Shown here: positions 4,039 to 56,640 of the stretch, in pieces
Position numbering within the stretch: position 1 is the first letter of the stretch
Layout: each line of letters starts with the position of its first letter
Origin: an uncultured Gammaproteobacteria bacterium
Lineage (GTDB): Bacteria > Pseudomonadota > Gammaproteobacteria > CAKMZV01
DNA length: 64,000 nt
NCBI GenBank assembly: GCA_929200535.1
Contig: CAKMZV010000001.1
Span: 45,470-109,469, forward strand
Direction of reading: 5' to 3'
Program-made: the position numbers and the translations under genes
The notes under the pieces: model-generated
Told to the model about the DNA's origin: nothing
Database searches by the model: none
The model's input: only the letters and a program-made list of their open reading frames with translations

Positions 4039-5754
4039 TTATTTTTTCCACTCTTTTACAATATTGTCAAAATCTACATTTTTCCACTGCTCTTTCCAAA
4101 TTTTTAGATACTCAATATCGTTAGAAGAAGGCTTGGGGCTGCATTCATCAATTTTGATAATTGAAGGCATGATGATTGATTCTCCAATAAGCAAGGCCTC
4201 TCCTGACTGCATAGAAGGCATTGAATCTGTCAAATTCCCTAGAGTATCAGGCAAGAGCCTTTTTACATAGTTTTGGTCATCTGGATTTGTAAGTCTCATG
4301 GCAATAAAATTGTTACATTGAGAAAAAATTGTTTCTGAAATTTCGGAAGGTCTTTGACTTACAATACCCAAAGTGACTCCATATTTTCTTCCTTCTTTAG
4401 CAATTCTTTCAATTGCCATTTTGGATGCCCTATATCTTACTAAATCGCTTTTTGGTACATATTTATGGGCTTCTTCATAAATCAAAACAAGGGGAGTTTC
4501 GCAATCCTTTGACTTTTCATCTAAAAGTTTTTTATAAAAATATCCATATTCAAAAAGAATTCTAGAAATCAACGAAACGGTGATACTTAAAACTTCAAAA
4601 GGGATTCCAGATAAATCCACTACTGTGATATTTGATTTGGAGTCTTGGTATCCTAAAAACTGCTTCAAAACATCTTCAACAGTCATATTTTCAACATTCT
4701 CAAACAAGAATTTGAGCCTTGGGTTGTGCCTTGTGTTCTCTAATCTTAAAACAAATCTTTCGAAATCTCCCGTGTATGGACCATTTACATAATTTGAATC
4801 AACTTTATCAAATTCAAGCTCTTCTTCAAAGTATTTCGTCAATCTATCATGAATAATCTCCCCTGTTTTTGTTGTTGGAGTTCTATTATTCTTTTTATTT
4901 ACAAATTCATTATTAATATTCTTTATATATTTAATCACTCCATCAATACTAAATTTTAAGGGTGAGTCAAAATAGATTTTATTTTGATCCTGTTCCGAAT
5001 TTAATTTTTTCTTATTTTCAGTGACTGCATATCTAAATTGTGAAATTTGATTATGAGAGTTGCTTTCATTGCTCTCAATAAATAAGTCTCCCAATTCATC
5101 ACTATCAAATAACCAGTATGGGATTTTAATATCTGCACTTATATGATTGGCTGTAGGAAAAGCCTCTTTATACTCACCATGAATATCAAATAGAACAATA
5201 TGAGAATTATTTAATCCATCGTATTCTCCATTTTTTGAGCTTATAGCTTCCTGTAAAATTTTTGCTACAGTGTGAGATTTTCCTGACCCTGTTGACCCAA
5301 CAATTGCAAAATGTTTGTTAAAAAATTTATCCCCGTTTACAGGCACATTAATTCTTTCATCTTGTGCTAATTTAGAAAAACAAAATTTTTCCTTATCTTT
5401 TATACTAGTTTGATAAATTTTATCAATATCATCATGTTTTGCAGGTTGGACACTCGTTGGAGGAATCGTTAAAGAATCCCCACCCCTTGTAAATTTTTCT
5501 CCAATAATTGTTCCCAAAGGATTTGCTTCAATAATGTATTTTCTTTTCCCATCCTCGTTTACTTCTATCAAGTAGCTTTCAATTATTGCAATGAGTTTAC
5601 AGTTTTTATCATCAGAAATTTCAAGGTATGAGCCAACTTTTAATTCCTCTAATTGTTCATCACAAGATTTAAATGCATCAAGATTGTCCACAGATATTTT
5701 TACTTTGTTAGGATAAACTGCAATAACTTCAGCTAATTTTGTTTCTTTTGTCAT
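4039..5754 (-). CDS. HerA/FtsK-superfamily ATPase (DUF87/COG0433-type), candidate anti-phage defence ATPase
   Basis: 571 aa. Walker A HFAIVGSTGSGKSHTVAKIL, Walker B-like PLVLIYEEAHKYVP, C-terminal GVTLGIVSQRPSEISETIFSQCNNFIAMRLTNPDDQ block typical of HerA/DUF87. Low-GC gene, second gene of a 2-gene operon (11-nt gap to upstream ORF), adjacent to tRNA-Leu. Confidence 0.8.
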   Translation of the reverse strand: MTKETKLAEVIAVYPNKVKISVDNLDAFKSCDEQLEELKVGSYLEISDDKNCKLIAIIESYLIEVNEDGKRKYIIEANPLGTIIGEKFTRGGDSLTIPPTSVQPAKHDDIDKIYQTSIKDKEKFCFSKLAQDERINVPVNGDKFFNKHFAIVGSTGSGKSHTVAKILQEAISSKNGEYDGLNNSHIVLFDIHGEYKEAFPTANHISADIKIPYWLFDSDELGDLFIESNESNSHNQISQFRYAVTENKKKLNSEQDQNKIYFDSPLKFSIDGVIKYIKNINNEFVNKKNNRTPTTKTGEIIHDRLTKYFEEELEFDKVDSNYVNGPYTGDFERFVLRLENTRHNPRLKFLFENVENMTVEDVLKQFLGYQDSKSNITVVDLSGIPFEVLSITVSLISRILFEYGYFYKKLLDEKSKDCETPLVLIYEEAHKYVPKSDLVRYRASKMAIERIAKEGRKYGVTLGIVSQRPSEISETIFSQCNNFIAMRLTNPDDQNYVKRLLPDTLGNLTDSMPSMQSGEALLIGESIIMPSIIKIDECSPKPSSNDIEYLKIWKEQWKNVDFDNIVKEWKK

Positions 5755-5765
5755 AATTTTTTAGG

Positions 5766-6938
5766 TTAAAGAATAGATAAAATATCAGATAAATTTTGAA
5801 TCTGAATTTTTATATTTTTATTATCAGACTCTATTTTAAGAGAAGTGTTTATGAAAAATTGATAAATTTCCTTTGTTTTTCCAAAATTTTCTGCAATCAT
5901 TTCTAAAAAATTATCCTCTGTATTAAGAAATTTTAAACATATACCGTTGTCTTTTGTTGAGGGCTCTTTTAGAGACTTAGAAGAAAAAACGGCATTTAAA
6001 AAATCATGCCCATCCTTTAATAAATGTCCTTCTTCATTTAAAGCTTGTTTTGTTGCTTGCAAATTTTCGGGTGTAATATTTGAAAGATAAATAAAAGGAG
6101 CTCCAGATTTTATTGCTCTATTTGCAGAGCAATAAAATTTATTTTTTATGCCTAAAATAGTCGTTTTTATTTGCTCTAATGCTTCGTTTTCTTGCAATTC
6201 AACCCAAATGAACCTCTCGAAATCATCTATATTTCTCCATGTAAAGTATTTTTTTTTGATAAGGGAAAAATATTCTTCATCCTTTAAAAACTCTCTATAA
6301 GCAGAGTAAAAAATACAACTTTTATGGTTACTAATAATATTTGTTAATTCTGATTTTGAACTTTTTCTTTCTTGGATATTTGTGGTTTGATTATTCGTAA
6401 TTTTTCTAAAAAGATGATCTAAGATTATTCCGTGAGCAAATACTGCATCTTCATCAGAAGAATAAGAAAACTCTGTTTTTATTTTTTCAATTACACTTTC
6501 AAAATGCTCATCAAAATTCTTTGAAAAATTAAAAGTAAAAGCTGAAAGAAAGCTGTTTTTTAGAGATTCATCAAAGTCATTGTTTCCTAAAATTGTATTT
6601 AATTCATCTAAACTTAAATTTTTAACACCTTCTTCTTGATCGCCAAAATAAGCATAAAGATGGTATTTTTTTGCTTGGTCTTTTTGGAAAAGTTCAATTA
6701 ATTGAATTATAGGCTTTTTTACAGATGAAGGGTAGTATGTTGCTTGTTCTTTATACTTAACCTGAATAACCTCATCGTCAAAATTGATATCTTGCTTTTG
6801 TTCAAAAGAAATTTCTGATTCAGGATTTTCGAGTATCTCTAAAATAGTTTTGTCCATCTGATAAACAAAACCTTTTATCGCATAATACCCACCATTCTCT
6901 GTTTTTATTTCTTTAACCATAAGCTTAAAATTTTGCAA
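5766..6938 (-). CDS. HerA-associated partner protein; possible DUF4297/Cap4-like (PD-(D/E)xK) nuclease effector, family uncertain
   Basis: 390-aa ORF immediately upstream of the HerA-like gene on the same strand. N-terminal GGYYAIKGFVYQ motif and acidic patch INFDDEVIQVKYK; no Sir2 GAGxS Rossmann motif seen. Very AT-rich. Confidence 0.55.
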   Translation of the reverse strand: MQNFKLMVKEIKTENGGYYAIKGFVYQMDKTILEILENPESEISFEQKQDINFDDEVIQVKYKEQATYYPSSVKKPIIQLIELFQKDQAKKYHLYAYFGDQEEGVKNLSLDELNTILGNNDFDESLKNSFLSAFTFNFSKNFDEHFESVIEKIKTEFSYSSDEDAVFAHGIILDHLFRKITNNQTTNIQERKSSKSELTNIISNHKSCIFYSAYREFLKDEEYFSLIKKKYFTWRNIDDFERFIWVELQENEALEQIKTTILGIKNKFYCSANRAIKSGAPFIYLSNITPENLQATKQALNEEGHLLKDGHDFLNAVFSSKSLKEPSTKDNGICLKFLNTEDNFLEMIAENFGKTKEIYQFFINTSLKIESDNKNIKIQIQNLSDILSIL

Positions 6939-7352
6939 ATACTCTACTCATAAGTTTTATAAAATCAACATAATATCATCCTGAATTAATGAACCTTTCA
7001 TTCATTCTACAACAAATAGTTTTCACAGGTTTTAATTAACTATTTTCAGAAGGTAGAAATAAGGACATTATCGAAGCTTAAATAAAACTCGAATATACAG
7101 TAGCAAGGTTGCAAGTTTGTAATGAATAGTTAAAAACTGTTCGTCGTCTTCACTTGCTATCTTTCCAAGGGTCAACCCTTAGAAACCTATGAGGGGGATT
7201 TTCATAAAATCACCCTTCAAACCCTCGTAATGAGAGTAAACAAAAGCTATCGTTTTTGACTCTGCCCAGAGGAGTTAGAAGATTTTGAGCTTTCGCCACG
7301 TACATCCTACATCTCACCCTGACGCTTTATAAAAGGTTTTTCATTATAGCTA

Positions 7353-7439
7353 TGGTACCAGAGGTCGGACTCGAACCGACACGCTTTTAAGGGCGGGGGA
7401 TTTTGAATCCCCTGTGTCTACCAATTCCACCACTCTGGC
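7353..7439 (-). tRNA. leuX: tRNA-Leu (anticodon CAA), leuX-like
   Basis: Reverse complement GCCAGAGTGGTGGAATTGGTAGACACAGGGGATTCAAAATCCCCCGCCCTTAAAAGCGTGTCGGTTCGAGTCCGACCTCTGGTACCA; cloverleaf with anticodon loop TTCAAAA, long variable arm, GGTTCGAGTCC T-arm, CCA end. Near-identical architecture to E. coli leuX. Confidence 0.85.
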
Positions 7440-7746
7440 AAATGCGTGATTTTTTATAAATAGATATTCATAAATAGATAGGTAGGTAATTAACTCTATC
7501 CAATAGGAAATTTTACCACAATAAAATTTACGTGTTCGTAATCGCTTCTACACATCTTCTATACATTAGCAACCTTTACATCAATAAGCGCGAGCCTTTA
7601 TAATATTTAATCCACAGTGCTTTGTGATGGTACAATTAAAAGGCGGATCAAAATTAAATGGCTGAAGAATGTTTTCTTATGTAAGGCATCTTTGGAATGC
7701 AGTTTTTGTTTTCGTCTCAAAAATAATTGAAAAAGTCTTCGCTATT

Positions 7747-7823
7747 CGGGGCGTGGCGCAGCCTGGTAGCGCACCACAATGGGGTTGTGGGGGTCGTAGG
7801 TTCAAATCCTGCCGTCCCGACCA
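7747..7823 (+). tRNA. tRNA-Pro (anticodon GGG)
   Basis: CGGGGCGTGGCGCAGCCTGGTAGCGCACCACAATGGGGTTGTGGGGGTCGTAGGTTCAAATCCTGCCGTCCCGACCA; anticodon stem CCACA/TGTGG with loop ATGGGGT; closely resembles E. coli proL; followed by T-run. Confidence 0.85.
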
Positions 7824-14149: not shown

Positions 14150-14245
14150 GCTATTTATAACAAAGAAGCACTACATTAAAAATAGATAAGTACTCTTTTG
14201 ATTTTTTTAGCTTAAGGAGCCGAAATTTACCCAGTCTTAATAAGT

Positions 14246-14406
14246 TGAGACCTTTGCACAAAAGATATGACAAGTAAAAAAGTAAAAAATCGCCCTGATT
14301 TTCGTTGTGAAACTTGCGAAGACGGACGTATTAGCTGCGTTCCACGCCTCAATCAGAACGATTTTTTATCTTTTTTCTTTTACCATACTTTTATGCAAAG
14401 GTCTCA
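14246..14406 (+). mobile_element. MITE-like palindromic repeat, copy 1 (orientation B)
   Basis: tgagacctttgcacaaaagatatgacaagtaaaaaa...ttttatgcaaaggtctca; about 161 bp, terminal inverted repeats, internal arms mutually complementary (aaaaaatcg(c/t)cctgatt...gtgaaa); 3' terminus overlaps the stop codon of the downstream minus-strand gene. Confidence 0.85.
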
Positions 14407-15723
14407 AGTTGTTTTACCAGGAATCCAAGTAGTTCCAGCGAGAGGAATTTGTGCCATAGCTGCCGCTTCAACAGTTAGGGCTGCCATATCTTCGGGTTCA
14501 AGATTATGTACATCACTCTTACCACAAGCACGTGCAAGTGTTTGCACTTCTAAGGTGAGACAACGCAGATAGTTCGCCACACGACGACCACCAAGCACAG
14601 GATCCAAACGTTTTGCCAAGTCTGGATTTTGAGTTGAGATACCTGCAGGACAATTACCTGCTTGGTATTCAAAATAATAACCTGATTTTGAGCCGATTTT
14701 TTCATATTCGCTATCAAGTTCTGGACTATTATCTCCCAAGGCAATAAGGGCAGCTGTACCTACAGAGACAGCGTCGGCACCCATCGCTAACGCTTTAGCA
14801 ACATCGGCTCCATTGCGAATACCACCAGAAACAATTAATTGCACTTTGCGGTGCATATCCATATCTTTTAAAGCCTGTACTGCTTGGCGCACTGCTGGTA
14901 AAGTCGGAATGCCAACATGCTCAATAAACACATCTTGAGTAGCGGCGGTTCCGCCTTGCATACCATCAACCACAACCACATCCGCACCAGCTTTCACTGC
15001 CAAGCTGGTATCAAAATAAGTACGTGCAGCACCTACTTTAATATAAATGGGTTTTTCCCAATTAGTGATTTCACGCAGTTCAGTAATTTTAATCTCTAAA
15101 TCATCTGGACCAGTCCAATCTGGATGACGACAAGCACTACGCTGATCAATATTTTGTGGCAAATCTCTCATACGAGCAACCCGCTCATTGATTTTTTGTC
15201 CCAGTAGCATTCCGCCACCACCCGGTTTGGCTCCTTGACCAACCACGACTTCTATTGCATCTGCTTTACGTAAATCATCTGGATTCATTCCATATCGTGA
15301 TGGCAGGTATTGATAGACCAATAAATTGGAATGTCCACGCTCTTCTTGAGTCATTCCACCATCACCAGTTGTGGTACTCGTACCTACTTCACTGGCACCA
15401 CGCCCTAAAGATTCCTTGGCTTGTGCTGAAAGTGAGCCAAAACTCATACCAGCAACAGTAATTGGGATTTTAAGCTCAATTGGTTTTTTGGCAAAACGTG
15501 TTCCTAACGTTACCGCTGTATTGCAAGCCTCACGATATCCTTCTAAAGGATAACGAGACATACTCGCCCCAAGAAATACTAAATCATCAAATGATGGCAC
15601 AAATCGTTTGGCACCACCACCTCGGATACTATAAATGCCTTCTTTAGCAGCACGTTGAATTTCTCGGATAGCATCCTTGCTAAAAGTTTTAGATTCTAAT
15701 AACCATGACTCATTAACACTCAT
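14404..15723 (-). CDS. Glutamate synthase-family FMN-binding domain protein (GltB domain-2 homologue; MgsC-like subunit of split glutamate/N-methylglutamate synthase)
   Basis: 439 aa; FMN/Fe-S glutamate-synthase central domain motifs (GAKPGGGG, VDGMQGGTAATQ, SGGIRNGADVAKALAMGAD). Stop codon TGA lies in terminus of MITE copy 1. Confidence 0.8.
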   Translation of the reverse strand: MSVNESWLLESKTFSKDAIREIQRAAKEGIYSIRGGGAKRFVPSFDDLVFLGASMSRYPLEGYREACNTAVTLGTRFAKKPIELKIPITVAGMSFGSLSAQAKESLGRGASEVGTSTTTGDGGMTQEERGHSNLLVYQYLPSRYGMNPDDLRKADAIEVVVGQGAKPGGGGMLLGQKINERVARMRDLPQNIDQRSACRHPDWTGPDDLEIKITELREITNWEKPIYIKVGAARTYFDTSLAVKAGADVVVVDGMQGGTAATQDVFIEHVGIPTLPAVRQAVQALKDMDMHRKVQLIVSGGIRNGADVAKALAMGADAVSVGTAALIALGDNSPELDSEYEKIGSKSGYYFEYQAGNCPAGISTQNPDLAKRLDPVLGGRRVANYLRCLTLEVQTLARACGKSDVHNLEPEDMAALTVEAAAMAQIPLAGTTWIPGKTT

Positions 15724-15742
15724 TCCAAATCCTCTTTATTAG

Positions 15743-16414
15743 TTAATATGCGTTATCAACGCTAAAATTATATAACTTTCTTGCTGAACCATAACGTTTA
15801 AATTCATCCACTGATATATCAGTAATGTCCGCTTTTTTTAATAACTCTGCCAATTCTTTACGATGCTCATCTTGCATTTCTTTTTCAATACAATCAGCCC
15901 CTAAGCTTTGTGCTTTGCCGCGTAAGTAAATACGTGCCTCATAAATAGAATCACCTAAGGCATTACCCGCATCTCCACAGATAACAAAGCGACCTTTTTG
16001 TGCCATAAAAGCCGACATATGCCCAACACTACCTCTAACAACAATATCTACTCCTTTCATAGAAATACCACAACGTGCCGACGCATCCCCATCAATAATA
16101 ATGGTTCCGCCATGCGCTGTTGCTCCGCAATATTGGGAAACACCGCCCTTAACGTGTACTTTGCCAGACATCATATTCTCAGCAAGCCCAGAGCCGGCAT
16201 TACCTTCAACTGTAATATCCGCTTTTTGATTCATCCCAGCACAGTAATAACCAACGTGTCCATTGATAGTCACACTCTGCTCTTTATTAAGACCAACAGC
16301 AATATTATGTTTGCCATTAGAATTTTCGACAACATACTGTGCGCCATTCTGAGCATTTTGAAGTTCTTGATTGAGTTCTCTTAAACTCACATTATTTAAA
16401 TCCAAATTCTTCAT
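15743..16414 (-). CDS. GXGXG-domain protein (glutamate synthase alpha-subunit C-terminal domain homologue; MgsB-like)
   Basis: 223 aa with repeated G-x-G-x-G beta-helix motifs (GNAGSG, GGVSQYCGATAHGG, GDAGNALG). Confidence 0.8.
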   Translation of the reverse strand: MKNLDLNNVSLRELNQELQNAQNGAQYVVENSNGKHNIAVGLNKEQSVTINGHVGYYCAGMNQKADITVEGNAGSGLAENMMSGKVHVKGGVSQYCGATAHGGTIIIDGDASARCGISMKGVDIVVRGSVGHMSAFMAQKGRFVICGDAGNALGDSIYEARIYLRGKAQSLGADCIEKEMQDEHRKELAELLKKADITDISVDEFKRYGSARKLYNFSVDNAY

Positions 16415-16465
16415 ATAGTAATTTCCTTAATTATTTCTATAAGTTACTTCTGGAAATAGCTATTA

Positions 16466-17380
16466 TTAAGCCGCTTTATGCCAAGAATATATTTTCCCCG
16501 GCTCTGGCTCCCAAATGGAAGCATTTTCAACACCCGGTAACATCGCTATCGCACGAAACTCTGAAGCCATAGCCACCCACTGATCTGTCTCAGCAATCAC
16601 CGCTGGCTTGCAGCCGATATTATCACGCATTACCGCAAAACCATCCTTAGTACCAATAGCAAAGGTATAAAAACCATCAAGATCATCTAATGCTTTAGTT
16701 AAGGCGGTATTTAAATCATCGCCTTGTTTTAAACGCCAGTTAAAATAGGCGGCAGCCACTTCACTGTCATTATCGGTGCTAATTACAATCCCTTCTTTGC
16801 GTAATTTTTCACGCCATCTATTGTGATTAGAAAGCGAACCATTGTGCACTAAACAAATATCATCCCCCGTTGAAAAAGGATGTGAGTGACCAGTCGTCAC
16901 GGCACTTTCTGTCGCCATACGAGTGTGCCCTAAAGCATGGCTACCAGTAAAACTTTGCAAATTAAAGGAAGCGATAACATCTTTAGGTAAGCCTTTTTCT
17001 TTGTATATCTCAATGACCCTTCCGCTACCATTCACATTAATATGAGGGAAATTTTCATTTAGCCACTCATTAAGTGTATTTGTATCTGTTTCCACACTAA
17101 TCAATGCATGAGAGCCTTTTTCCTCAAACTTCGTATCATTACCAAACTGCTTCTTTAGTGCTTGCCTCACTTCATCCCAATTTAACTCTTCACCGCTATC
17201 TACTAACGTGTTTAATAGCGTACATTTAATCTGCTTTCCGATTGTAGGTTGATCATAAATGGCAAATCCCACACTATCAGGTCCTCTTTCAGTCATTTCG
17301 ATAAGCATATCCGACAAATAACTACCTAAGTGCCCTTCTAATTTTTTTTCTTTTAAAAATAATCCGACAATTCCACACAT
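16466..17380 (-). CDS. Class II (Ntn) glutamine amidotransferase domain protein (GltB domain-1 homologue; MgsA-like)
   Basis: 304 aa starting MCGIVGLF (catalytic Cys2 after Met), typical GATase-2. Confidence 0.8.
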   Translation of the reverse strand: MCGIVGLFLKEKKLEGHLGSYLSDMLIEMTERGPDSVGFAIYDQPTIGKQIKCTLLNTLVDSGEELNWDEVRQALKKQFGNDTKFEEKGSHALISVETDTNTLNEWLNENFPHINVNGSGRVIEIYKEKGLPKDVIASFNLQSFTGSHALGHTRMATESAVTTGHSHPFSTGDDICLVHNGSLSNHNRWREKLRKEGIVISTDNDSEVAAAYFNWRLKQGDDLNTALTKALDDLDGFYTFAIGTKDGFAVMRDNIGCKPAVIAETDQWVAMASEFRAIAMLPGVENASIWEPEPGKIYSWHKAA

Positions 17381-17462
17381 AATATTTTTATATTGTTGTT
17401 AGTAATTTACGCAACATCCAACCTATTCCAAAAAAAATACTCACGCTTACTACCATACAGAT

Positions 17463-17623
17463 TGAGACCTTTGCATAAAAGTATGGTAAAAGAAAAAAGA
17501 TAAAAAATCGTTCTGATTGAGGCGTGAAATGAAGCTAATACGTCCGTCTTCGCAAATTTCACAACGATAATCAGGGCGATTTTTTACTTTTTTACTTGTC
17601 ATATCTTTTGTGCAAAGGTCTCA
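17463..17623 (-). mobile_element. MITE-like palindromic repeat, copy 2 (orientation A)
   Basis: tgagacctttgcataaaagtatggtaaaagaaaaaagataaaaaatcgttctgattgaggcgtgaaatgaagctaatacgtccgtcttcgcaaatttcacaacgataatcagggcgattttttacttttttacttgtcatatcttttgtgcaaaggtctca. Confidence 0.85.
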
Positions 17624-17664
17624 GATTGCACACTCCCTCAAAATGACGAAAGTAGGCAGCGTCT

Positions 17665-18509: not shown

Positions 18510-18872
18510 CTACTTTTTGTTTTTACTTGTATCTAACTTCTCACGAATTCTTGTTGCCTTGCCAAACCGATCTCTTAAATAATAAATTTTTGCACGACGG
18601 ACAACTCCACGACGCTCAACTTTAATGCTTGAAATCAAAGGACTATGGGTTTGGAAGACACGTTCCACACCAACCCCGTAAGAAATCTTCCTTACTGTAA
18701 AAGACGAATGGAGCCCACGATTTTTTTTCGCAATGACAACTCCCTGAAAATTCTGCAAACGTTCTCTCTCTCCTTCTTTCACACGCACAAATACAGAAAC
18801 AGTATCTCCTGGTGAAAAATCGGCTCTTTCTTTCAAGTGTTCTTTTTCTAAAGCTTGAATAATTTGACTCAT
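18510..18872 (-). CDS. rplS: 50S ribosomal protein L19
   Basis: 120 aa [14 protein letters not shown]...; canonical L19. Confidence 0.9.
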
Positions 18873-20831: not shown

Positions 20832-20874
20832 TTATAAGGATTTGTCATTTATAAGGCGGGCAATGGTCTTAATT

Positions 20875-21035
20875 TGAGCCCTTTGCACAAAAGTATGGCA
20901 AAAGAAAAAAGATAAAAAATCGTTCTGATTAAGGCGTGAAATGAAGCCAATACGTCCGTCTTCGCAAATTTCACAACGAAAATCAGAGCGATTTTTTGCT
21001 TTTTTACTTGTCATATCTTTTGTGCAAAGGGCTCT
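20875..21035 (-). mobile_element. MITE-like palindromic repeat, copy 3 (orientation A, variant termini tgagccc...gggctc)
   Basis: Same about 160-bp element with G-to-C change in both termini (compensatory, preserves terminal hairpin). Confidence 0.8.
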
Positions 21036-21330
21036 TTGTAAAAAAAAATCCAAAGGAGCTGCAAAAGTCCCATAATCGACCTTGCTTACTACTTTGGATT
21101 ACGTATTACTTAATTATACAATCAGTTATTTATTTGATGATGATGGCAGTGTTGTATTTAATCCATCAATATGTTCGTGTAAATCAGGTTTGATAGGAGC
21201 CCACATAGAATCTAAAACAAATAAATTTATACCCATTAGAGAATTTGGATAAAAAAAATCCAGAGGGTTGGCTAAATTCTTATCGTCGAATCAGCGTTTA
21301 TGCTCTGGATTGTGAATAGTATATAATCTT

Positions 21331-21383: not shown

Positions 21384-21401
21384 GTGTGGTTAGTAATAAT
21401 T

Positions 21402-21561
21402 TGAGACCTTTGCATAAAAGTATGGTAAAAGAAAAAAGATAAAAAATTGTTCTGATTGAGGCGTGAAATGAAGCGAATACGTCCGTCTTCGCAAGTTTCA
21501 CAACGACAATCAGAGCAATTTTTTACTTTTTTACTTGTCATATCTTTTGTGCAAAGGTCTC
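21402..21561 (-). mobile_element. MITE-like palindromic repeat, copy 4 (orientation A)
   Basis: tgagacctttgcataaaag...tgtgcaaaggtctc; ends 3 nt before the sufS/csdA-like stop codon. Confidence 0.85.
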
Positions 21562-21564
21562 CAT

Positions 21565-23125: not shown

Positions 23126-24247
23126 TTACTCTTTAACCCTAGACCATACGTCGTTGTGGTAACCATTTTCCAGCCCAGTATTTATTGTCTGTCCACCAAT
23201 CACCCATACTTTTTCATCAAATACCACCGATGTATGCTCATGTCGAGCCACGAATTTTTCCGTATTTATCTCATAAGTCCAAGTGATACCATCGTAAGAG
23301 CTCCATACTTCGTTTTTGTAGTCACCATCGGTGGTGCCACCAATGACCCACATTTTCTCACCACTACCATCATCAAAAACCACCGATGTATGAGCGCTTC
23401 GAACACTGAATACTGCTGAATCCGTAGCGGTAGTCCAAGTAACACCATTGGTAGATTTCCATACGTCGTTCAAACGTGAAGAACCATTATTGCCACCAAT
23501 CACCCACATTTTATCATCAAAAACCACCGATGTATGACTGTGTCGAGCCGAGAATTTTGCCGAACTATCTTTCGTCTCCTCAATCCAAGTGGCACCATTA
23601 GTAGAGCTCCATACTTCGTTACCACCACGGGTGCCACCAATGACCCACATTTTCTCACCCTCATTATCATCAGCAACATCAAAAGCCACCGCTGTATGAT
23701 AACTGCGAGCCGAGAATGCTGCTGCATCCGTAGCGGTAGTCCAAGTGACACCATCGGTAGAGCTCCATACATCGTTAAATCTACTACTACCGAAGTCACC
23801 ACCAATGACCCACATTCTATTATCAAAAACCACCGATGCATGTCTAGCTCGAGGCGAGAATCCCTTTGTATCAGGAGCAGCCAAATCATTAGACTTAACC
23901 TCAGTCCAAGTGGCACCATTGGTAGAGCTCCATACATCGTTTGCAATAATAATTTTTGAGCCTCCTGAGCCACCAATGATCCACATTTTCTTACCATCCT
24001 TATCACCAGCAACCTCAAAAGCCACCGATGCATGAGCAAATCGACCCGGGAATCCATCTGAAGTATGAGACTTAACCTCAGTCCAAGTATAGGTGGCAGG
24101 ATCAGGCTTATCAACAGGGCAAAAATTTGCTGCAAGAATAATCGGTGCGTATAGGGTAAGGACAAAAATTTTGAGAGATAAGAATTGTTTGATAATTTTA
24201 GAGTAGTTCATATTGATAGGATAGGTTTTTTTTATTACAATTAGCAT
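23126..24247 (-). CDS. Secreted Kelch-type beta-propeller repeat protein
   Basis: 373 aa with N-terminal signal/TM and about 6 tandem about 50-aa blades (DVWSSTDGVTWT...ARxxHTSVVFDxKMWVIGG); nucleotide-level internal repeats generate spurious antisense ORFs. Confidence 0.7.
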   Translation of the reverse strand: MLIVIKKTYPINMNYSKIIKQFLSLKIFVLTLYAPIILAANFCPVDKPDPATYTWTEVKSHTSDGFPGRFAHASVAFEVAGDKDGKKMWIIGGSGGSKIIIANDVWSSTNGATWTEVKSNDLAAPDTKGFSPRARHASVVFDNRMWVIGGDFGSSRFNDVWSSTDGVTWTTATDAAAFSARSYHTAVAFDVADDNEGEKMWVIGGTRGGNEVWSSTNGATWIEETKDSSAKFSARHSHTSVVFDDKMWVIGGNNGSSRLNDVWKSTNGVTWTTATDSAVFSVRSAHTSVVFDDGSGEKMWVIGGTTDGDYKNEVWSSYDGITWTYEINTEKFVARHEHTSVVFDEKVWVIGGQTINTGLENGYHNDVWSRVKE

Positions 24248-24504: not shown

Positions 24505-25437
24505 CTAACTGCCTACTTTTTTTAATTGGGAAATTACCCTAATATGCTCAGGGCCAATCTCACAACAACCCCCAAGAATTGTGGCTCCATTGTGCATAAA
24601 TTTTTCTACGTATTGATAAAAAATCTCTGTTTTTTTTAATTCTTCGTTAATACCTAAAATCAAACTGGGATTACCACCCTCTCCCCATTTTTTTGCCGAT
24701 GAAACCACATAATTTTCAGGAATTTTATCAAAGGCATTTAGCTTGAAGCCATAAGGAATATTCAGATTATTAAACTCGTTTTGAGCCATTTCATACGCAT
24801 TGGGGGATGCGCAGGCAACAATTAAACCTAACCAATTATTCTGTTGATCTCTTGCGGCAATATCAGTGATACTTTCTTCTGAGGGGAGTTTTCCATTTTC
24901 TTTTAGGTGCACACCAATCAAAGCCGGTAAATTAAAGGGCGCGATAGATTCAAGAGCAATATCACATTCTAAGCCACTTCCCATCACATCAAGAAAAAAG
25001 AAGTCAATACCATTTTTTATATATTTTGCTTGGCTTGAGAAACGTTCTTTGATTTCATCAAGGTCTTCCCCAAGATCTGCACTATAGGTTTGTTTTTGAT
25101 TAGGAAGACTGCCCGCAATAAGCACGTCTTTTTTCGCAATATCTCGTGCTCTTTGAGCTAACTCTACGGCAGTCTTATTAATTTTCTCAAATACTTCAAG
25201 ACAATTATTTTGCTCTAACCTGCCTTTTCTTGCTGTAAAAGTAGAGGTCGTAATTACTTCCGCACCTGCATTGATAAAGTCGATATGAGTATCAATTACC
25301 ATTTGATGATATTCCTCATACATCAAGGCATAAGCAGACCACAAAGTGCCGGTCGGTTTTAATCCCTTGCTAAGAAGTTCTTGCCCCATACCACCATCAA
25401 GAATTCTTAATGTTTGAAAAAAGGTTTTGTCTATCAT
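24505..25437 (-). CDS. Homocysteine S-methyltransferase (MmuM/Hcy-binding domain family)
   Basis: 310 aa; N-terminal ILDGGMGQEL and C-terminal GGCCEIGPEHI zinc-binding motif. Confidence 0.75.
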   Translation of the reverse strand: MIDKTFFQTLRILDGGMGQELLSKGLKPTGTLWSAYALMYEEYHQMVIDTHIDFINAGAEVITTSTFTARKGRLEQNNCLEVFEKINKTAVELAQRARDIAKKDVLIAGSLPNQKQTYSADLGEDLDEIKERFSSQAKYIKNGIDFFFLDVMGSGLECDIALESIAPFNLPALIGVHLKENGKLPSEESITDIAARDQQNNWLGLIVACASPNAYEMAQNEFNNLNIPYGFKLNAFDKIPENYVVSSAKKWGEGGNPSLILGINEELKKTEIFYQYVEKFMHNGATILGGCCEIGPEHIRVISQLKKVGS

Positions 25438-40911: not shown

Positions 40912-42408
40912 TCAGTTCATCGTTGGCATAGAAAACTCAATGCCCTCACGGACTCCAGCAGAAGGCCAACGTTGGGTGATTGTTTTGCGTTTGGTATAAA
41001 AACGTACTGAGTCTGGACCATAAGCGTGTAAATCACCAAAAAGCGAGCGTTTCCAACCGCCAAAACTGTGATAGGCAACGGGTACTGGTAAAGGAACATT
41101 AATGCCGACCATACCAACTTGTATATGATCAGAAAAATAGCGTGCTGCCTCTCCATCACGAGTAAAAATACAGGTGCCATTGCCATATTCGTGGGCATCA
41201 ATTAAATCCATTGCCTCTTGCATTGTTTTGACTCTGATAACTTGTAGGACTGGTCCAAAAATTTCTTCTTTATAACTGCTCATATCCGCAGTCACATTAT
41301 CAAGCAGTGTGCCGCCAACATAAAAACCATCTTCATAGCCTTTAACTTTAGGATTTCTACCATCAACGACCACCGTTGCCCCTTGTTTTTCGGCACTCTC
41401 AATATAGCCCTCAACTTTTTCTTGATGTTGTTTTGTAATCACTGGACCAAAGTCATTGCTACTGTCACTAAAGGCTCCAACTTTGAGATCGCTCATTCCT
41501 GTAGCCAGTTTTTCAACTAATAAATTAGCAACCGCATCGCCTACTGCAACCACAACCGATAAAGCCATACAACGTTCGCCCGAGGAGCCAAAGGCAGCAC
41601 CAAGCAATTGATTGACCGCATTATCAACATCCGCATCCGGCATTACTATCGCATGATTTTTTGCCCCACCCAGAGCTTGCACGCGCTTACCATTGGCATT
41701 TGCTTGAGTATAAATATATTCGGCAATAGGGGTTGAGCCCACAAAACTGACCGCCTTAATTCGAGCATCCGATAATAAAGTATCGACTGCCACTTTATCA
41801 CCATTGACGACATTCATCACTCCATCAGGTAAGCCTGCTTGTTTTAATAAATCGGCAATAAACAAGGCTGCACTTGGATCTCTCTCAGAAGGTTTTAGAA
41901 TAAAACAATTGCCACAAACAATTGCCATTGGGAACATCCATAGGGGAACCATCGCTGGAAAGTTAAAGGGCGTAATTCCGGCAACAACACCCAGAGGTTG
42001 AAATTCACTCCATGAGTCAATATTTGGACCAACATTTTTGCTATGCTCTCCCTTTAATAGCTCGGGTGCTCCACAGGCATATTCAACATTTTCAATACCG
42101 CGCTGTAATTCCCCCATTGCATCGTGGGCAATTTTGCCATGCTCTTCACCAATTAATTGACAAATTTTTTCAGCATTTTTTTCCAATAGTTCTTTGTAGC
42201 GAAACATCACTCTCGCTCTTTTAATAGCAGGCGTATTACGCCAAGCAGGATAGGCTGCTTGGGCATAAGTAATCGCTTGTTCAACAAGCTCTTTAGAGGC
42301 TAATAAAACCTCTTTTTCTGCTTGCCCAGTTGTTGGGTTATATACCGCTTGTGTACGATCATTATTCGTACATATCTCACCATTAATAAAATGCCCGATA
42401 GTTTTCAT
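40912..42408 (-). CDS. mmsA: Methylmalonate-semialdehyde / malonate-semialdehyde dehydrogenase (CoA-acylating)
   Basis: 498 aa aldehyde dehydrogenase; MmsA-type catalytic segment GERCMALS; clustered with pyrimidine reductive catabolism genes. Confidence 0.8.
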   Translation of the reverse strand: MKTIGHFINGEICTNNDRTQAVYNPTTGQAEKEVLLASKELVEQAITYAQAAYPAWRNTPAIKRARVMFRYKELLEKNAEKICQLIGEEHGKIAHDAMGELQRGIENVEYACGAPELLKGEHSKNVGPNIDSWSEFQPLGVVAGITPFNFPAMVPLWMFPMAIVCGNCFILKPSERDPSAALFIADLLKQAGLPDGVMNVVNGDKVAVDTLLSDARIKAVSFVGSTPIAEYIYTQANANGKRVQALGGAKNHAIVMPDADVDNAVNQLLGAAFGSSGERCMALSVVVAVGDAVANLLVEKLATGMSDLKVGAFSDSSNDFGPVITKQHQEKVEGYIESAEKQGATVVVDGRNPKVKGYEDGFYVGGTLLDNVTADMSSYKEEIFGPVLQVIRVKTMQEAMDLIDAHEYGNGTCIFTRDGEAARYFSDHIQVGMVGINVPLPVPVAYHSFGGWKRSLFGDLHAYGPDSVRFYTKRKTITQRWPSAGVREGIEFSMPTMN

Positions 42409-42449
42409 AAATCCTCTTTATCGTTTTACAATATAAAATTTTCAATCTT

Positions 42450-43736
42450 TCACTCAATATTTTTGCTTTTGAAATCGACCTCGAAAGTGTTGCCATTTAA
42501 GTTCAAATGGCTCACTAATGGCTTGGCTTTTGCCACTATTTCACCAAATCGAAAAACATACAGCCTAATTGCCTTAAGGCGAATAGCTTCGATTGAGTCT
42601 GATGCCTGTAGAATAATTATATTTGCATCGTTGCCTTTTTGTATGCCATAGCCATCAAGTTGCATTACTTTTGCCGAATGGGTTGTGATTGTTTCATACA
42701 TATAACGCATTTCTTCAAGAGCGGTCATCTGTTGGCTATGAATTGCCATATTTGCTACCGCAAGCATATCATGAGAGCCTAAACTATACCAAGGGTCCAT
42801 CACGCAATCATGCCCAAGAGAAACATTAATATCAAAATCACGCATCTCACGGATTCTCGTCATACCTCTTCTTTTAGGGTAGTTGTCATGGCGACCTTGC
42901 AAAGAAATATTGATCAAAGGATTGGCAACAACATTAACATCTGCCTCAGCCATAAGCGGTAATAATTTACTCACATAGTAGTTATCCATAGAGTGCATTG
43001 AAGTCAAATGCGAGCCAGTAACTCGACCTTGTAATCCCAGACGATGTGTTTCATAGGTTAGGGCTTCAATATGTCGTGAAAGCGGGTCATCGGATTCATC
43101 ACAATGCATATCAACCAACAACCCTCTATCAGCAGCCAATTCACATAATGTGGTAATGGAGCGAGTTCCTTCACTCATCGTGCGTTCAAAATGTGGAATC
43201 CCACCTACCACTTCAACCCCCATATCTATCGCCTTAAGCAAATTTTTCTCTGCACCTTCTGAGCGATACAATCCATCTTGAGGAAAGGCAACTAATTGTA
43301 AAGTGAGCCAAGGAGCTATTTCTTTTTTAACTTCTAACAATGCCTCAACGGTAATTAATCTTGAGTCGGTAATATCGACGTGGCTACGAATCGCTTGAAT
43401 GCCTTGAGCTATTGACCATCGGCACATAGCCAACGCTCTTTTTTTTACCTCTTCGGCTGTTAACAAAGGGCGTAATTCACCCCAAAGTTGAATGCCTTCT
43501 AATAGAGTACCACTCTCATTCATCCGTGGATTGCCCAGACTTAAGGCGGCATCTAAATGAAAATGAGTATCAATAAATGGGGGAGAAATTAAACAGCCTT
43601 TGGCATCTATCGTTTGTCTTGAATTAATTTTTAATTCCTTACCAATTTCGACTATTTTTCCTTTATCAATCGCTATATCGATTTGTTGTTGCCCATCAAT
43701 TAAATTGCCCTGGCGAATAATTGTGTCTATCGTCAT
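42450..43736 (-). CDS. Cytosine deaminase-like amidohydrolase (CodA family)
   Basis: 428 aa; metal-binding PFIDTHFHLD motif, amidohydrolase fold, CodA-like length. Confidence 0.65.
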   Translation of the reverse strand: MTIDTIIRQGNLIDGQQQIDIAIDKGKIVEIGKELKINSRQTIDAKGCLISPPFIDTHFHLDAALSLGNPRMNESGTLLEGIQLWGELRPLLTAEEVKKRALAMCRWSIAQGIQAIRSHVDITDSRLITVEALLEVKKEIAPWLTLQLVAFPQDGLYRSEGAEKNLLKAIDMGVEVVGGIPHFERTMSEGTRSITTLCELAADRGLLVDMHCDESDDPLSRHIEALTYETHRLGLQGRVTGSHLTSMHSMDNYYVSKLLPLMAEADVNVVANPLINISLQGRHDNYPKRRGMTRIREMRDFDINVSLGHDCVMDPWYSLGSHDMLAVANMAIHSQQMTALEEMRYMYETITTHSAKVMQLDGYGIQKGNDANIIILQASDSIEAIRLKAIRLYVFRFGEIVAKAKPLVSHLNLNGNTFEVDFKSKNIE

Positions 43737-44716
43737 ATTCTTTCTCCTTTTCTAAAGGGTACCAATAATGCTCTCGGATAACGAGCCTTTCGAGCAACAA
43801 TAATCATTGCCACAATGGACATAATATAGGGTAGCATTAGGAAAAATTGATAAGGGATAACATCGCCACTAAATTGTTGCACGCGCACCTGTAACGCTTC
43901 GAGACCGGCAAAAATAAAAGCTCCAAATAATGCTTTACCTGGTTTCCAAGAGGCAAAAATAACGAGTGCTACGGCAATCCATCCGCGACCATTAATCATC
44001 CCAAAATAAAAGGCATCAAAAGCAGACATCGTTAAAAACGCACCACCAACTGCCATAAATCCACTACCAATCATTACCGCAAATGTACGCACTCGCAAAA
44101 CATTAATTCCTTGAGCCTCCACTGCCACCGGACATTCCCCTGCCATCCTAACCGCAAGCCCAGCTGGAGTACGATAAAGAACGTACCACACAATCGGTAC
44201 CAGCAATAAGGCGAAATAGGTAAGCGGTGTTTGATTGAATAATGCCTCACCAAACACCGGGATTTCCGCAAGAAAGGGAATAGCGTAATTCTCAAATGGA
44301 ACAATTTTTGGTGGCGTAGTAGCCGAGGGCAATAACAAGCGATAAGCATAGTAGCTCAAGGAGGCTGCAAATAGTGTAATGCCTATTCCTGTTACGTGCT
44401 GTGATAATCCAGCATAGACTGTAAAACAACTATGAATAAAGCCAAAAACAGCACCGATGAAAAAGGCAAAAAGAACGCCTGTCCATAAATCACCACCTTG
44501 GTAAACCCACATCCAACCGCACATAGCCCCCATTGTCATAATCCCCTCAATACCAAGGTTTAATACGCCGGCACGCTCGCAAATTAACTCACCCAAAGTA
44601 GCTAAAATTAATGGACTCACAATCCGAATAGTGGCAGCCCAAAATCCAGTCGTTAATAAAAGTTCTAATATTTCCATCTTATTTAAAACGAAGACGATAT
44701 TGGGTAAACATAACAC
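43733..44716 (-). CDS. ABC transporter permease (BMP/nucleoside-type, NupQ-like)
   Basis: 327 aa polytopic permease, overlapping start/stop with neighbouring permease. Confidence 0.8.
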   Translation of the reverse strand: MLCLPNIVFVLNKMEILELLLTTGFWAATIRIVSPLILATLGELICERAGVLNLGIEGIMTMGAMCGWMWVYQGGDLWTGVLFAFFIGAVFGFIHSCFTVYAGLSQHVTGIGITLFAASLSYYAYRLLLPSATTPPKIVPFENYAIPFLAEIPVFGEALFNQTPLTYFALLLVPIVWYVLYRTPAGLAVRMAGECPVAVEAQGINVLRVRTFAVMIGSGFMAVGGAFLTMSAFDAFYFGMINGRGWIAVALVIFASWKPGKALFGAFIFAGLEALQVRVQQFSGDVIPYQFFLMLPYIMSIVAMIIVARKARYPRALLVPFRKGERI

Positions 44717-45728
44717 TCACTAACACACATAATACCGAAACACCAACAATAACATCTGCCAAATAGGCAGGAATATTTAATACTCGACTCATTGAATCTG
44801 CCCCCACATACACTACCGATATAAAAAATGCCGAAATAACAACACCTATTGGATTGAGCTGAGCTAACATCGCAACCACTATTCCCGTATAGCCAAACCC
44901 TGGCGATAAATCTAAGGTAAGATAGCCCTTTAAACCGGCAACTTCACTCACCCCTGCAAGCCCTGCCAATCCACCACTAATAAGCGAAACTTTGATGATT
45001 GTCATATTCACAGGAATACCAAAAAAATTAGAGGCTTGTAGGTTTAAACCGACGGCACGACTGGCATAACCAAAGGTAGTAAAACGCATTACTATCCACG
45101 TAATAACGGCGGCAATCAATGCAAATATGAGCCCCAAATGTACTCTGCTTTTTTCAAACAGGGGTGGAAATACTCCCTCGTCAATAATTGAGGCTGTTTG
45201 TGGCCAGCCCAACGAAGCAGGGTCTTTCATTGGTCCTTCAATAAGATAGCTGACCATCAATAAAACAATAAAGTTTAATAGTAAGGTGGTAACCACCTCA
45301 TCAACTTTTAAATGTGTCTTAAGTAGGACCGGAACAATAAGAAGCAACCCACCTGCTATTACCCCACAAAGCATCAGTAATGGAATCATCGCTATGGGTG
45401 GCAAGGTAATCATCCCACTACCAATATAAACGGCTGCCAAGGCCCCACAATACAATTGCCCTTCACACCCTATATTATAAAATTTTGACCTAAAGGCTAC
45501 TGCCACTGCTAAGCCAGTAAAAATAAGCGGAATGGAGCGACTCAATGTTTCCATAATGGCAAAGCGTGAACCTAAGCCACCATTAAGTAATGCCCCGTAA
45601 GCCGTGAATACTGGGGCGTCTGCCCAAATGATTAATACTGAACAGAGCGATAATGCAACAATCATTGCAAATAATGGTGCAAACAACACTAACCAAAACG
45701 GGGTATTTGTTCTAACTTCTAATTGCAT
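44679..45728 (-). CDS. ABC transporter permease (BMP/nucleoside-type, NupP-like)
   Basis: 349 aa polytopic permease. Confidence 0.8.
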   Translation of the reverse strand: MQLEVRTNTPFWLVLFAPLFAMIVALSLCSVLIIWADAPVFTAYGALLNGGLGSRFAIMETLSRSIPLIFTGLAVAVAFRSKFYNIGCEGQLYCGALAAVYIGSGMITLPPIAMIPLLMLCGVIAGGLLLIVPVLLKTHLKVDEVVTTLLLNFIVLLMVSYLIEGPMKDPASLGWPQTASIIDEGVFPPLFEKSRVHLGLIFALIAAVITWIVMRFTTFGYASRAVGLNLQASNFFGIPVNMTIIKVSLISGGLAGLAGVSEVAGLKGYLTLDLSPGFGYTGIVVAMLAQLNPIGVVISAFFISVVYVGADSMSRVLNIPAYLADVIVGVSVLCVLVSVMFTQYRLRFK

Positions 45729-45740
45729 ATTTTAAACTTT

Positions 45741-47270: not shown

Positions 47271-47287
47271 AAGACGATAAATTTATA

Positions 47288-47325
47288 TAAAGACTATCTC
47301 CCACGTAGGAGCGTGGGAGCAAGAA
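47288..47325. repeat. REP-like hairpin (tctcccacgtaggagcgtgggagcaagaag)
   Basis: Inverted repeat ctcccacg/cgtgggag around taggag; same family as 22905-22945; sits between SBP gene and ABC ATPase gene. Confidence 0.5.
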
Positions 47326-47345
47326 GGTAAAAAAAACATCCATTA

Positions 47346-48347: not shown

Positions 48348-48387
48348 ACTACTCTCCTATAAATTAAAAGCAAAACAATAAAAAGGT

Positions 48388-49830: not shown

Positions 49831-49926
49831 TGCTTCTCCTTAACTTTATGTTAATAATAAAATCACTCTCAAATACTAAAAAATACTACCTCTTAAAATA
49901 TGGTCCGTCTAAAAAAGCCTAAAAAT

Positions 49927-51225: not shown

Positions 51226-51242
51226 TTTATTCCTCTCTTCTT

Positions 51243-52595: not shown

Positions 52596-52626
52596 TAGCT
52601 TCTTGCTCCTAATTTAATTATTCAAA

Positions 52627-54223
<1,597 letters not shown>

Positions 54224-54259
54224 TTAAATATGACTCTTTTATACCTTAGGCTACCTCTA

Positions 54260-55135: not shown

Positions 55136-55186
55136 TACATTTCTCCTTTTTAGTAAATTTTTTAGTTTTCTGTTATTCGATGCTTC

Positions 55187-56625: not shown

Positions 56626-56640
56626 ATAAAAAAAACATTC

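Follow-up and report, generated by a model that had tools for sequence, protein, structure and literature searches.

A probable N-methylglutamate synthase operon, mgsABC, standing apart from its pathway partner genes in a marine gammaproteobacterium

Three adjacent genes of a marine gammaproteobacterium, which carry the database labels 'glutamate synthase domain-containing protein 1/2/3', very probably encode a functional orthologue of N-methylglutamate synthase (methylamine--glutamate N-methyltransferase, EC 2.1.1.21), as judged from sequence comparison, and are unlinked from the genes of the partner enzymes. The latter, GmaS and MgdABCD, in all likelihood have their genes in another part of the genome. 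N-methylglutamate synthase catalyses the middle step of the N-methylglutamate pathway, through which monomethylamine serves many bacteria of sea and soil as a source of nitrogen, carbon or energy. The operon lies in a 64-kb stretch of DNA, here called the window, and the nearest named relatives of the host belong to Ca. Thioglobus (TypA 75% identical). As it stands, mgsABC belongs to well-known, ordinary metabolism, is arranged slightly atypically and leaves current understanding unchanged. Its sole unusual points are that its partners are not encoded close by and that it is flanked by two MITEs of later arrival.

The locus was originally predicted to harbour a split module of three co-directional genes for an Ntn amidotransferase, a GXGXG protein and an FMN domain protein. 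This layout is confirmed: three co-directional ORFs occupy the minus strand between positions 14404 and 17380, exactly where they had been placed, and their Pfam matches are far beyond chance (Table 1). The intergenic gaps are short, 51 nt between mgsA and mgsB and 19 nt between mgsB and mgsC, and the module has a GC content of ~0.40, the same as its surroundings. The setting is one of housekeeping genes: a dsbC-like gene precedes mgsABC, which is followed by a gene for a BepA-like M48 peptidase that is convergent with mgsC. Upstream of mgsA, a promoter scan disclosed no recognisable sigma-70 promoter and a terminator scan nothing convincing; Rfam returned no match at the mgsABC locus.

Table 1. 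Position of the mgs genes and of the adjoining MITE copies in the window
Feature	Coordinates	Strand	Description
mgsA	16466..17380	-	N-methylglutamate synthase subunit A (probable), Ntn (class II) amidotransferase, 304 aa
mgsB	15743..16414	-	N-methylglutamate synthase subunit B (probable), GXGXG beta-helix protein, 223 aa
mgsC	14404..15723	-	Subunit C (probable), GltB-type FMN-binding domain protein, 439 aa, without Fe-S ligands
MITE copy	14245..14407		3' end of mgsC, in the space shared with the M48/BepA-like peptidase gene
MITE copy	17462..17624		In the dsbC-like/mgsA intergenic region, upstream of mgsA; 81 nt separate it from the start codon

The identity of the operon rests on all three subunits. 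MgsA begins with MCGIVG, its Cys directly following the initiator Met, and is matched by GATase_6 (7e-20) and GATase_7 (4e-17). Upon alignment with E. coli GlmS (PDB 1XFF), Cys1, the Arg of HTRMAT, the Asn-Gly of VHNGS and the Asp of DNDSEV coincide with catalytic and glutamine-binding residues. MgsB is a GXGXG protein (4e-12) related to FwdC. MgsC belongs to the Glu_synthase family (PF01645, 9e-90) and contains the family FMN-site motif QGAKPGGGGMLLG, which 119 of 120 homologues have without change. The proteins encoded in the Methylophaga sp. OBS4 locus, where the order is mgdA-(D)-C-D, gmaS, mgsA, B, C, were taken as the orthology reference rather than experimentally characterised MgsABC: MgsA is 52% identical to its counterpart over the full length, MgsB 60% and MgsC 77%, which bears out the suggestion of an mgsABC-type module. 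Bacterial MgsC-type proteins of 74–95% identity make up both the best 120 of 8000 MgsC matches and the 80 genome loci retained from 590 that were confirmed. Homologues from hundreds of bacterial genomes, at more than 590 loci, are about 77–82% identical to MgsC, and Methylophaga, Ancylobacter, Xanthobacter, Hyphomicrobium and Roseovarius loci are found among them. Some of the JGI entries are titled 'methylamine---glutamate N-methyltransferase subunit C'.

Genomic linkage connects the family with the pathway. gmaS is located no more than 1.5 kb from mgsABC in 52 of 63 informative loci and about 2–6.2 kb away in six further ones, and this proximity ties the mgsABC family to N-methylglutamate formation and use. 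In a neighbour-joining tree of concatenated MgsABC the window forms one clade with three other loci (L087, L091 and L005). The sister loci of this clade display mgsABC-gmaS and the clade is nested among gmaS-linked loci; in all four of its members gmaS is not adjacent to mgsABC. Adjacency to gmaS is ancestral and the linkage has been lost in the window's small clade. The L087 MgsC is 95% identical to that of the window and resides in the same syntenic context (typA-rplS-dsbC-mgsABC-M48-purA-hisZ-hflCK), and the L091 protein is 88% identical, its mgsABC also being followed by the M48 gene. All three mgs genes are under strong purifying selection: compared with L087 and L091, dN/dS is 0.06–0.08 for mgsA, 0.09–0.14 for mgsB and 0.025–0.05 for mgsC, thus 0.025–0.14 overall, at dS >1.4. 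The divergence of MgsA and MgsB relative to MgsC falls at the low end of the gmaS-linked range, yet inside it, so that there is no sign of relaxed constraint in the gmaS-unlinked clade. A moonlighting role, which had been proposed for the module, is not supported: catalytic residues and family-invariant motifs are kept under purifying selection, and nothing in the sequence speaks against the normal reaction.

An archaeal-type or otherwise alternative split glutamate synthase, assimilating ammonia by converting glutamine and 2-oxoglutarate into two glutamates, would equally present the three GltB domain types as separately encoded proteins. Moreover, canonical gltBD, with its ~1500-aa fused large subunit and GltD, is absent from the window ORFs: in line with the original prediction, no fused ORF of GltB size occurs, the largest ORF being PutA with 1113 aa. 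Such a role is nevertheless very unlikely, and the archaeal-type option originally entertained is not supported, given that the closest relatives, at 77–95% identity, are MgsC proteins of bacterial gmaS/mgd clusters and that MgsA matches GATase_6/7 and not the GltB-type GATase_2. The match to the GltB model NF008730 reaches 132 bits where the cut-off is 1047, and the similarity of MgsC to GltB is at the identity level in one region only (E 2e-28). The alignment of MgsC to A. brasilense GltB (1EA0/2VDC) ends at GltB residue 1101; the first 3Fe-4S cysteine is presumably Cys1102, a position at which MgsC has Asp331 when the sequence is read past the alignment end. The five cysteines of MgsC are scattered, the segment corresponding to the GltB 3Fe-4S site is Cys-free in 91 of 108 MgsC homologues and no Fer4 Pfam domain was matched in the mgsABC proteins. 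The statement that a GltD-like subunit is missing holds for the module, not for the window: one GltD-family protein is encoded at 51243–52595, but it sits within a pyrimidine-catabolism cluster beside PreA (NF006183, 673 bits against a cut-off of 335) and is therefore PreT, not a partner of mgsABC. Without 3Fe-4S ligands, a ferredoxin domain or a dedicated GltD partner, the module has no route for external electrons. A different question is whether the synthase operates without its usual partners. It is improbable that N-methylglutamate synthase and gamma-glutamylmethylamide (GMA) synthetase have become uncoupled in the marine Thioglobus-related clade formed by the window, L087, L091 and L005, and that the former serves as a stand-alone, ATP-independent device for methylamine capture, MgsA taking another gamma-glutamyl amide or playing only a structural or regulatory part. 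A slightly more doubtful version holds that GmaS, and perhaps Mgd as well, has disappeared from the clade, and that free methylamine and glutamate react at no cost in ATP, with NH3 released for nitrogen scavenging or N-methylglutamate as the end product, or else that the MgsA donor is a different gamma-glutamyl amide or glutamine. The position of gmaS, never beside mgsABC in the four clade members and present in the sister loci, is in keeping with stand-alone use, and so is the separation of mgsABC from its partners, which had been noted at the outset and is substantiated here: tblastn (E<=0.01) detected no gmaS, mgdABCD or soxBDAG homologue over the window extended by 10 kb on both sides, 84 kb in all, the extensions containing only housekeeping, restriction-modification and defence genes. 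When the SoxA-like protein of L005 was used as a query, the window's 123-kb scaffold was absent from the best 120 matches. L005 is the closest complete relative (1.92-Mb genome) and possesses soxBDAG-like genes near its mgsABC; these may encode a true sarcosine oxidase, their identity to Methylophaga being 48% for mgdA and 30% for mgdC, and the best non-self matches of the SoxA-like protein are at 61%, with named matches from SAR86 and Pseudothioglobus at 58–59%. In P. putida, mgsABC alone converts methylamine to N-methylglutamate, and 2.5-fold more is obtained with gmaS; GmaS is dispensable in M. extorquens DM4 when methylamine is the nitrogen source (PMC6237917), and GMAS is considered non-essential in M. 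universalis (PMC3160333). On the other hand, MgsA has kept every catalytic residue and is under strong purifying selection, which speaks for the continued use of an amide donor, for instance gamma-glutamylmethylamide. Unlinked partners are common, as the loci with gmaS at 2–6 kb illustrate, the absence of partners pertains to about 84 kb of a genome, and stand-alone use in the absence of Mgd would consume glutamate stoichiometrically.

The MITEs raise the possibility that mgsABC is a recent arrival, brought to the site as a composite MITE-bounded cassette. Exactly three genes are enclosed by two copies of 163 nt each, inverted with respect to one another and 96% identical, and the upstream one is predicted to fold into a long hairpin (-59 kcal/mol, z = -8.5). 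The bracket reported originally is genuine, but no significance of it is supported: L087 harbours mgsABC at the same site among the same neighbours, at dS >1.4 from the window, and neither homologous site contains a MITE. The mgsC-M48 junction is shared by L091 as well. Seven MITE copies, all 91–96% alike, are dispersed over the 64 kb, and two of them would flank one operon by chance about once per two such windows; the GC content of the module, moreover, does not set it apart. A 29-nt MITE core found no matches in the metagenome contig collection scanned. Carriage by a mobile cassette is accordingly highly improbable: the MITEs inserted later into the flanking intergenic regions, were not the carriers of mgsABC, and their bracketing of it is incidental. 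Least probable of all is that the operon is a degenerating relic of a methylamine pathway that has been lost, a reading which the local lack of partner genes and the placement of one MITE over the mgsC stop codon and of the other in the promoter region might intimate. The MITE terminal TTGAGACC provides the last base of the final mgsC codon and the TGA stop, so the protein ends in GKTT-TGA in the window as against GKTI-TAA in L087. However, this insertion leaves the ORF length unchanged, MgsC having 439 aa in both organisms with and without the 3' MITE. The three ORFs are full length with all motifs intact, and within the gmaS-unlinked clade dN/dS stays low at synonymous divergences that have reached saturation.

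If mgsABC acts as N-methylglutamate synthase, family knowledge suggests the following course. MgsA, the Ntn amidotransferase, would hydrolyse gamma-glutamylmethylamide to glutamate and methylamine, or free methylamine might enter directly. The MgsB beta-helix would act as a structural scaffold. The FMN of MgsC would oxidise glutamate to the 2-imino or 2-oxo acid, with which methylamine would condense, and the same FMNH2 would then reduce the N-methylimine to N-methylglutamate, NH3 being set free. The overall reaction would be redox-neutral, and for this reason the family could dispense with a 3Fe-4S cluster and with a GltD or ferredoxin partner. FMN as the sole redox cofactor fits the predicted properties of MgsC, which has neither 3Fe-4S ligands nor an external reductant subunit. 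In this lineage the operon has become separated from a once-adjacent gmaS and now stands among housekeeping genes.

These considerations put forward a specific function, the conversion of methylamine into N-methylglutamate, for genes with generic 'glutamate synthase domain-containing protein 1/2/3' labels, and would extend the likely capabilities of a poorly sampled lineage of marine gammaproteobacteria to the use of methylated amines. It has long been unsettled whether the N-methylglutamate pathway necessarily runs through GMA. The gmaS-unlinked clade offers a modest lead on the need for GMA synthetase and, if the synthase proved to work alone, would constitute a natural experiment on this very issue. 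The redox cofactor of the synthase has been left open (PMC6237917), and an internal FMN redox cycle is attributed to Pollock & Hersh 1973, as cited in the same article. The family-wide lack of Fe-S ligands and of an electron-input partner favours an internally balanced FMN cycle.

Among known systems, GltBD (A. brasilense 1EA0/2VDC, B. subtilis 7MFM) and ferredoxin-GOGAT (Synechocystis 1OFD) share with the module a homologous FMN (TIM-barrel) domain, in which QGAKPG and FMN-binding segments are conserved in MgsC, a homologous GXGXG beta-helix and an Ntn amidotransferase with an N-terminal Cys. They differ in that the domains in the window are distributed over three polypeptides in the order amidotransferase-GXGXG-FMN with no 'central' domain, in that the 3Fe-4S cysteines are replaced in MgsC (Asp at the first position, plus an insertion of ~25 residues) and in that MgsA falls into the GlmS/PurF-like GATase_6/7 group and not into GATase_2; unlike GltBD, the module has no GltD. 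Archaeal-type split glutamate synthases, such as those of methanogens, similarly have the GltB domains as separate genes. However, archaeal FMN-domain proteins possess Fe-S binding sequences for electron input; MgsC, compared with the archaeal side by description only, has none, and the close relatives of the window module are all bacterial MgsC. MgsABC is known from Methyloversatilis universalis FAM5, Methylobacterium extorquens DM4/PA1 and Methylocella silvestris, and goes by the name GlxBCD in SAR11 and rhizobia. The window operon resembles it in its three subunits, their A-B-C order and their sizes, those of M. extorquens DM4 being about 300, about 225 and about 442 aa (PMC6237917). Further shared traits are the family-invariant FMN-site motif, the preserved Ntn catalytic residues, the lack of Fe-S ligands and an identity of 52/60/77% to the Methylophaga proteins of a canonical mgdABCD-gmaS-mgsABC cluster. 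In contrast with typical MgsABC loci, the window has no adjacent gmaS, no mgdABCD in 84 kb and no local regulator, and its operon is set among housekeeping genes between two MITEs, one of which supplies a stop codon. Linkage to gmaS is typical of the MgsABC family and is not required for the identity of the enzyme.

The genes mgsA, mgsB and mgsC, encoding the putative subunits of an N-methylglutamate synthase (EC 2.1.1.21), are three consecutive open reading frames on the same strand, separated by gaps of 51 and 19 nt. As the original prediction had it, each encodes a separate GltB-type domain, an assignment that the open reading frames and Pfam matches place far beyond chance. No family-level NCBIfam model was reached by any of the three proteins: the best match of MgsC is to the FMN region of GltB, scoring 132 bits where the cut-off is 1047.

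Coordinates of the mgsABC module, the MITE copies and other features (window positions unless stated)
Feature	Position	Strand	Remarks
mgsA	17380..16466	minus	304 aa; starts MCGIVG; Pfam GATase_6 7e-20, GATase_7 4e-17
mgsB	16414..15743	minus	223 aa; Pfam GXGXG 4e-12
mgsC	15723..14404	minus	439 aa; Pfam Glu_synthase PF01645 9e-90
MITE copy	14245-14407	inverted relative to 17462-17624 copy	96% identical to that copy; 3' flank of mgsC
MITE copy	17462-17624	inverted relative to 14245-14407 copy	81 nt before mgsA start
MITE, other full copies	20874-21036, 21401-21563, 52636-52798, 57606-57768		
MITE, disrupted copy	from 40035		
hflK, hflC, DUF2065, hisZ, purA, M48/BepA-like peptidase	upstream	plus	M48/BepA-like gene convergent with mgsC
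typA, rplS, dsbC-like gene	ahead of mgsA	minus	rplS at 18510-18872
GltD-family protein	51243-52595		adjoins PreA
Pyrimidine catabolism and uptake cluster	40912-57559	minus	
Low-GC island	4039-7820		GC ~30%
tRNA gene	7356-7439	minus	beside low-GC island
tRNA gene	7747-7820	plus	beside low-GC island
Restriction-modification and ATPase genes	L090 13382-23342		sequence adjoining the window's left end
Kelch-repeat protein	23126-24247		373 aa
Homocysteine S-methyltransferase-family gene	24505-25437		adjacent to Kelch-repeat gene

Homologues of MgsC number in the thousands; the best 120 are all 79–100% identical, and a few of these are entered at JGI as 'methylamine---glutamate N-methyltransferase subunit C'. 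When one genome per species was scanned, 590 related stretches were confirmed. The best 80 of these were kept, in which MgsC is 74–82% identical to that of the window; they derive from Gammaproteobacteria, Alphaproteobacteria, Actinomycetota, Latescibacterota and Gemmatimonadota, and include the genera Methylophaga, Ancylobacter, Xanthobacter, Hyphomicrobium and Roseovarius. The gene order in Methylophaga sp. OBS4 is mgdA, (mgdB), mgdC, mgdD, gmaS, mgsA, mgsB, mgsC, and the window proteins A, B and C are 52, 60 and 77% identical to its MgsA, MgsB and MgsC over their full length. Among the 63 loci whose flanks extend for 2.5 kb or more on each side, a gmaS homologue lies within 1.5 kb in 52 and within 6.2 kb in six more, and an mgdA-like gene is also present in the flanks of 30, a linkage that ties the family to the N-methylglutamate pathway. 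These identities and the proximity of gmaS bear out the proposed resemblance to MgsABC, and the module is assigned by sequence as an MgsABC orthologue.

MgsC stands out by its exceptional conservation across phyla: the window protein is 74–82% identical to those of Actinomycetota, Latescibacterota and Gemmatimonadota (P0001–P0120 and L007–L086, the homologous proteins and loci), which exceeds the identity of TypA between the window and its nearest named relatives (75%). Such conservation suggests that MgsC is under very strong constraint, that the operon has spread horizontally, or both.

Alignment of MgsA with the glutaminase domain of Escherichia coli GlmS (1XFF) indicates that the N-terminal nucleophile Cys, the Arg of HTRMAT (HTRWAT in GlmS), the Asn-Gly oxyanion pair of VHNGS and the Asp of DNDSEV (TDTEV in GlmS) are retained. 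Since all these catalytic residues are present, MgsA appears to be an active gamma-glutamyl-amide hydrolase. MgsC aligns with residues 855–1101 of Azospirillum brasilense GltB, covering QGAKPG and the FMN-binding segments, and 119 of 120 homologues share its motif QGAKPGGGGMLLG unchanged. The 3Fe-4S ligands of GltB, which we take to be Cys1102, 1108 and 1113, lie just past the end of this alignment, where the window protein reads D331-NSPELDSEYEKIGSKSGYYFEYQAGNCPAG. Across the 108 MgsC homologues with a parsable segment, 91 have no Cys in this region and 17 have one, which argues for a family devoid of an Fe-S cluster; it likewise has neither a ferredoxin domain nor a GltD partner. The alternative that the module is an archaeal-type GOGAT is rejected on these grounds and on the MgsABC orthology. 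The lack of all three elements fits a reaction that is redox-neutral in the account of Pollock and Hersh, as cited in PMC6237917. Glutamate would be oxidized by FMN, the resulting keto or imino acid would condense with methylamine, and the N-methylimine would be reduced by the same FMNH2; with GMA (gamma-glutamylmethylamide) as donor, the net conversion GMA + H2O = N-methylglutamate + NH3 would be likewise balanced. The allocation of these steps to subunits is inferred by homology with GltS.

The operon is embedded among housekeeping genes, and putA, tol-pal, mla, type II/IV secretion genes, a reductive pyrimidine-catabolism cluster, argG and trpE are found elsewhere in the window. The predicted separation from its customary partners was confirmed: tblastn (E ≤ 0.01) of the window and 10 kb at each end detected neither the GS-like gmaS nor the four-subunit, sarcosine-oxidase-like mgdABCD, the matches being the three genes only. 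Of the closest relatives, which were examined one by one, L087 (95% identity in MgsC) reproduces the neighbourhood exactly: typA, rplS, dsbC, mgsABC, M48, purA, hisZ, DUF2065, hflC and hflK. In L091 (88%) mgsABC is followed by a convergent M48 gene, and in L005 (87%; 1.92-Mb contig) by a convergent pgi and then soxBDAG-like genes. The latter share no more than 48 and 30% identity with Methylophaga mgdA and mgdC and may represent a genuine sarcosine oxidase; the window's scaffold has no homologue among the best 120 matches of the L005 SoxA-like protein. No gmaS occurs in the flanks of L087, L091 or L005, the L091 contig ending 50 nt upstream of mgsA. In a neighbour-joining tree of concatenated MgsABC the window and these three loci form one clade, whose sister group includes Pseudothioglobus sp. 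nBUS_23; five of the six loci in that group carry gmaS directly downstream of mgsC, and the remaining one, L009, breaks off shortly beyond mgsC. Given sister loci with gmaS and a four-locus clade without it, the linkage was lost a single time, at the root of the clade.

The operon is not decaying: dN/dS against L087, L091 and L005 is 0.06–0.08 for mgsA, 0.09–0.14 for mgsB and 0.025–0.05 for mgsC, with synonymous sites near or past saturation. The divergence of MgsA and MgsB relative to MgsC falls within the range of gmaS-linked pairs, on the low side. In Pseudomonas putida mgsABC alone yields N-methylglutamate, and 2.5-fold more with gmaS, and in Methylobacterium extorquens DM4 GmaS is dispensable for nitrogen use (PMC6237917); the enzyme may thus be able to work independently of gmaS. 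That the amidotransferase is intact and under constraint argues for the continued use of an amide donor. The suggested moonlighting role found no support.

The two MITE copies said to bracket the module are indeed present. They belong to a family of 163-nt elements with terminal inverted repeats TTGAGACCTTTGCA, represented in the window by seven copies, six full and one disrupted, which are 91–96% alike, the flanking pair being the most similar only by a narrow margin. A mobile MITE cassette is rejected as an explanation of the bracket: L087 shares the neighbourhood and has no MITE at either homologous junction, its intergenic spaces being shorter by ~145 and ~172 nt, and double flanking is expected by chance, as ~7 occupied intergenic regions of ~55 would give one operon flanked on both sides about once per two such windows. 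The element is also absent from the other 83 loci compared, and has no match in a scan of a metagenome contig collection or in Rfam. Copy number, the MITE-free L087, the absence from the 83 loci and the chance expectation show that the bracket is incidental; the elements therefore arrived after mgsABC was already in place. The downstream copy has overwritten the end of the mgsC reading frame, its final codon and stop (...ACA ATC TAA in L087 versus ...ACA ACT TGA in the window): the MITE end supplies the TGA stop and the third base of the codon before it (14404–14412), leaving the length of the reading frame unchanged. The upstream copy, folded as the segment 17457–17630, forms a long hairpin (-59 kcal/mol, z = -8.5), and a promoter search upstream of mgsA yielded nothing convincing. 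The family is a possible lineage marker.

Several other features of the region deserve mention. The sole GltD-family protein in the window is PreT, as it stands beside PreA (673 bits, cut-off 335). Both belong to a complete-looking cluster for reductive pyrimidine catabolism and uptake, which further comprises an aldehyde dehydrogenase, an amidohydrolase, a Bmp-type nucleoside ABC transporter, a cytosine/uracil permease, a dihydropyrimidinase-like amidohydrolase, a beta-ureidopropionase-like CN hydrolase, a class-III aminotransferase and a RutR-like TetR regulator. The gene rplS, usually at the end of the rpsP-rimM-trmD-rplS operon, stands alone between typA and the dsbC-like gene, a layout shared with L087. 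The low-GC island encodes a HerA/DUF87 ATPase and an unannotated 390-aa ORF; past putA, just outside the window's left end, lie a type I restriction-modification system and AAA_13/AAA_23 ATPases, and together these probably constitute a defence island. A beta-propeller protein is built of Kelch repeats, a eukaryote-like repeat family.

The contig is a scaffold from a metagenome (ENA ERZ23492265 scaffold_1, 122,989 bp); its sequence recurs in JGI 3300034734, and the right-hand part of the window is also present in the NCBI MAGs GCA_929200245.1 and GCA_929200695.1. The host is best placed as a little-sampled gammaproteobacterium close to the Thioglobus group: for the window TypA, identity to Ca. 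Thioglobus proteins is 75%, exceeded by just two sequences (80–83%). Genes for methylated amines have been reported from Ca. Thioglobus singularis (PMC5520151), and accounts of the N-methylglutamate pathway exist for M. extorquens DM4, M. universalis and SAR11 (PMC6237917, PMC5023235, PMC3160333). The enzyme family is already known, and the window copy is a new, slightly atypical member of it.
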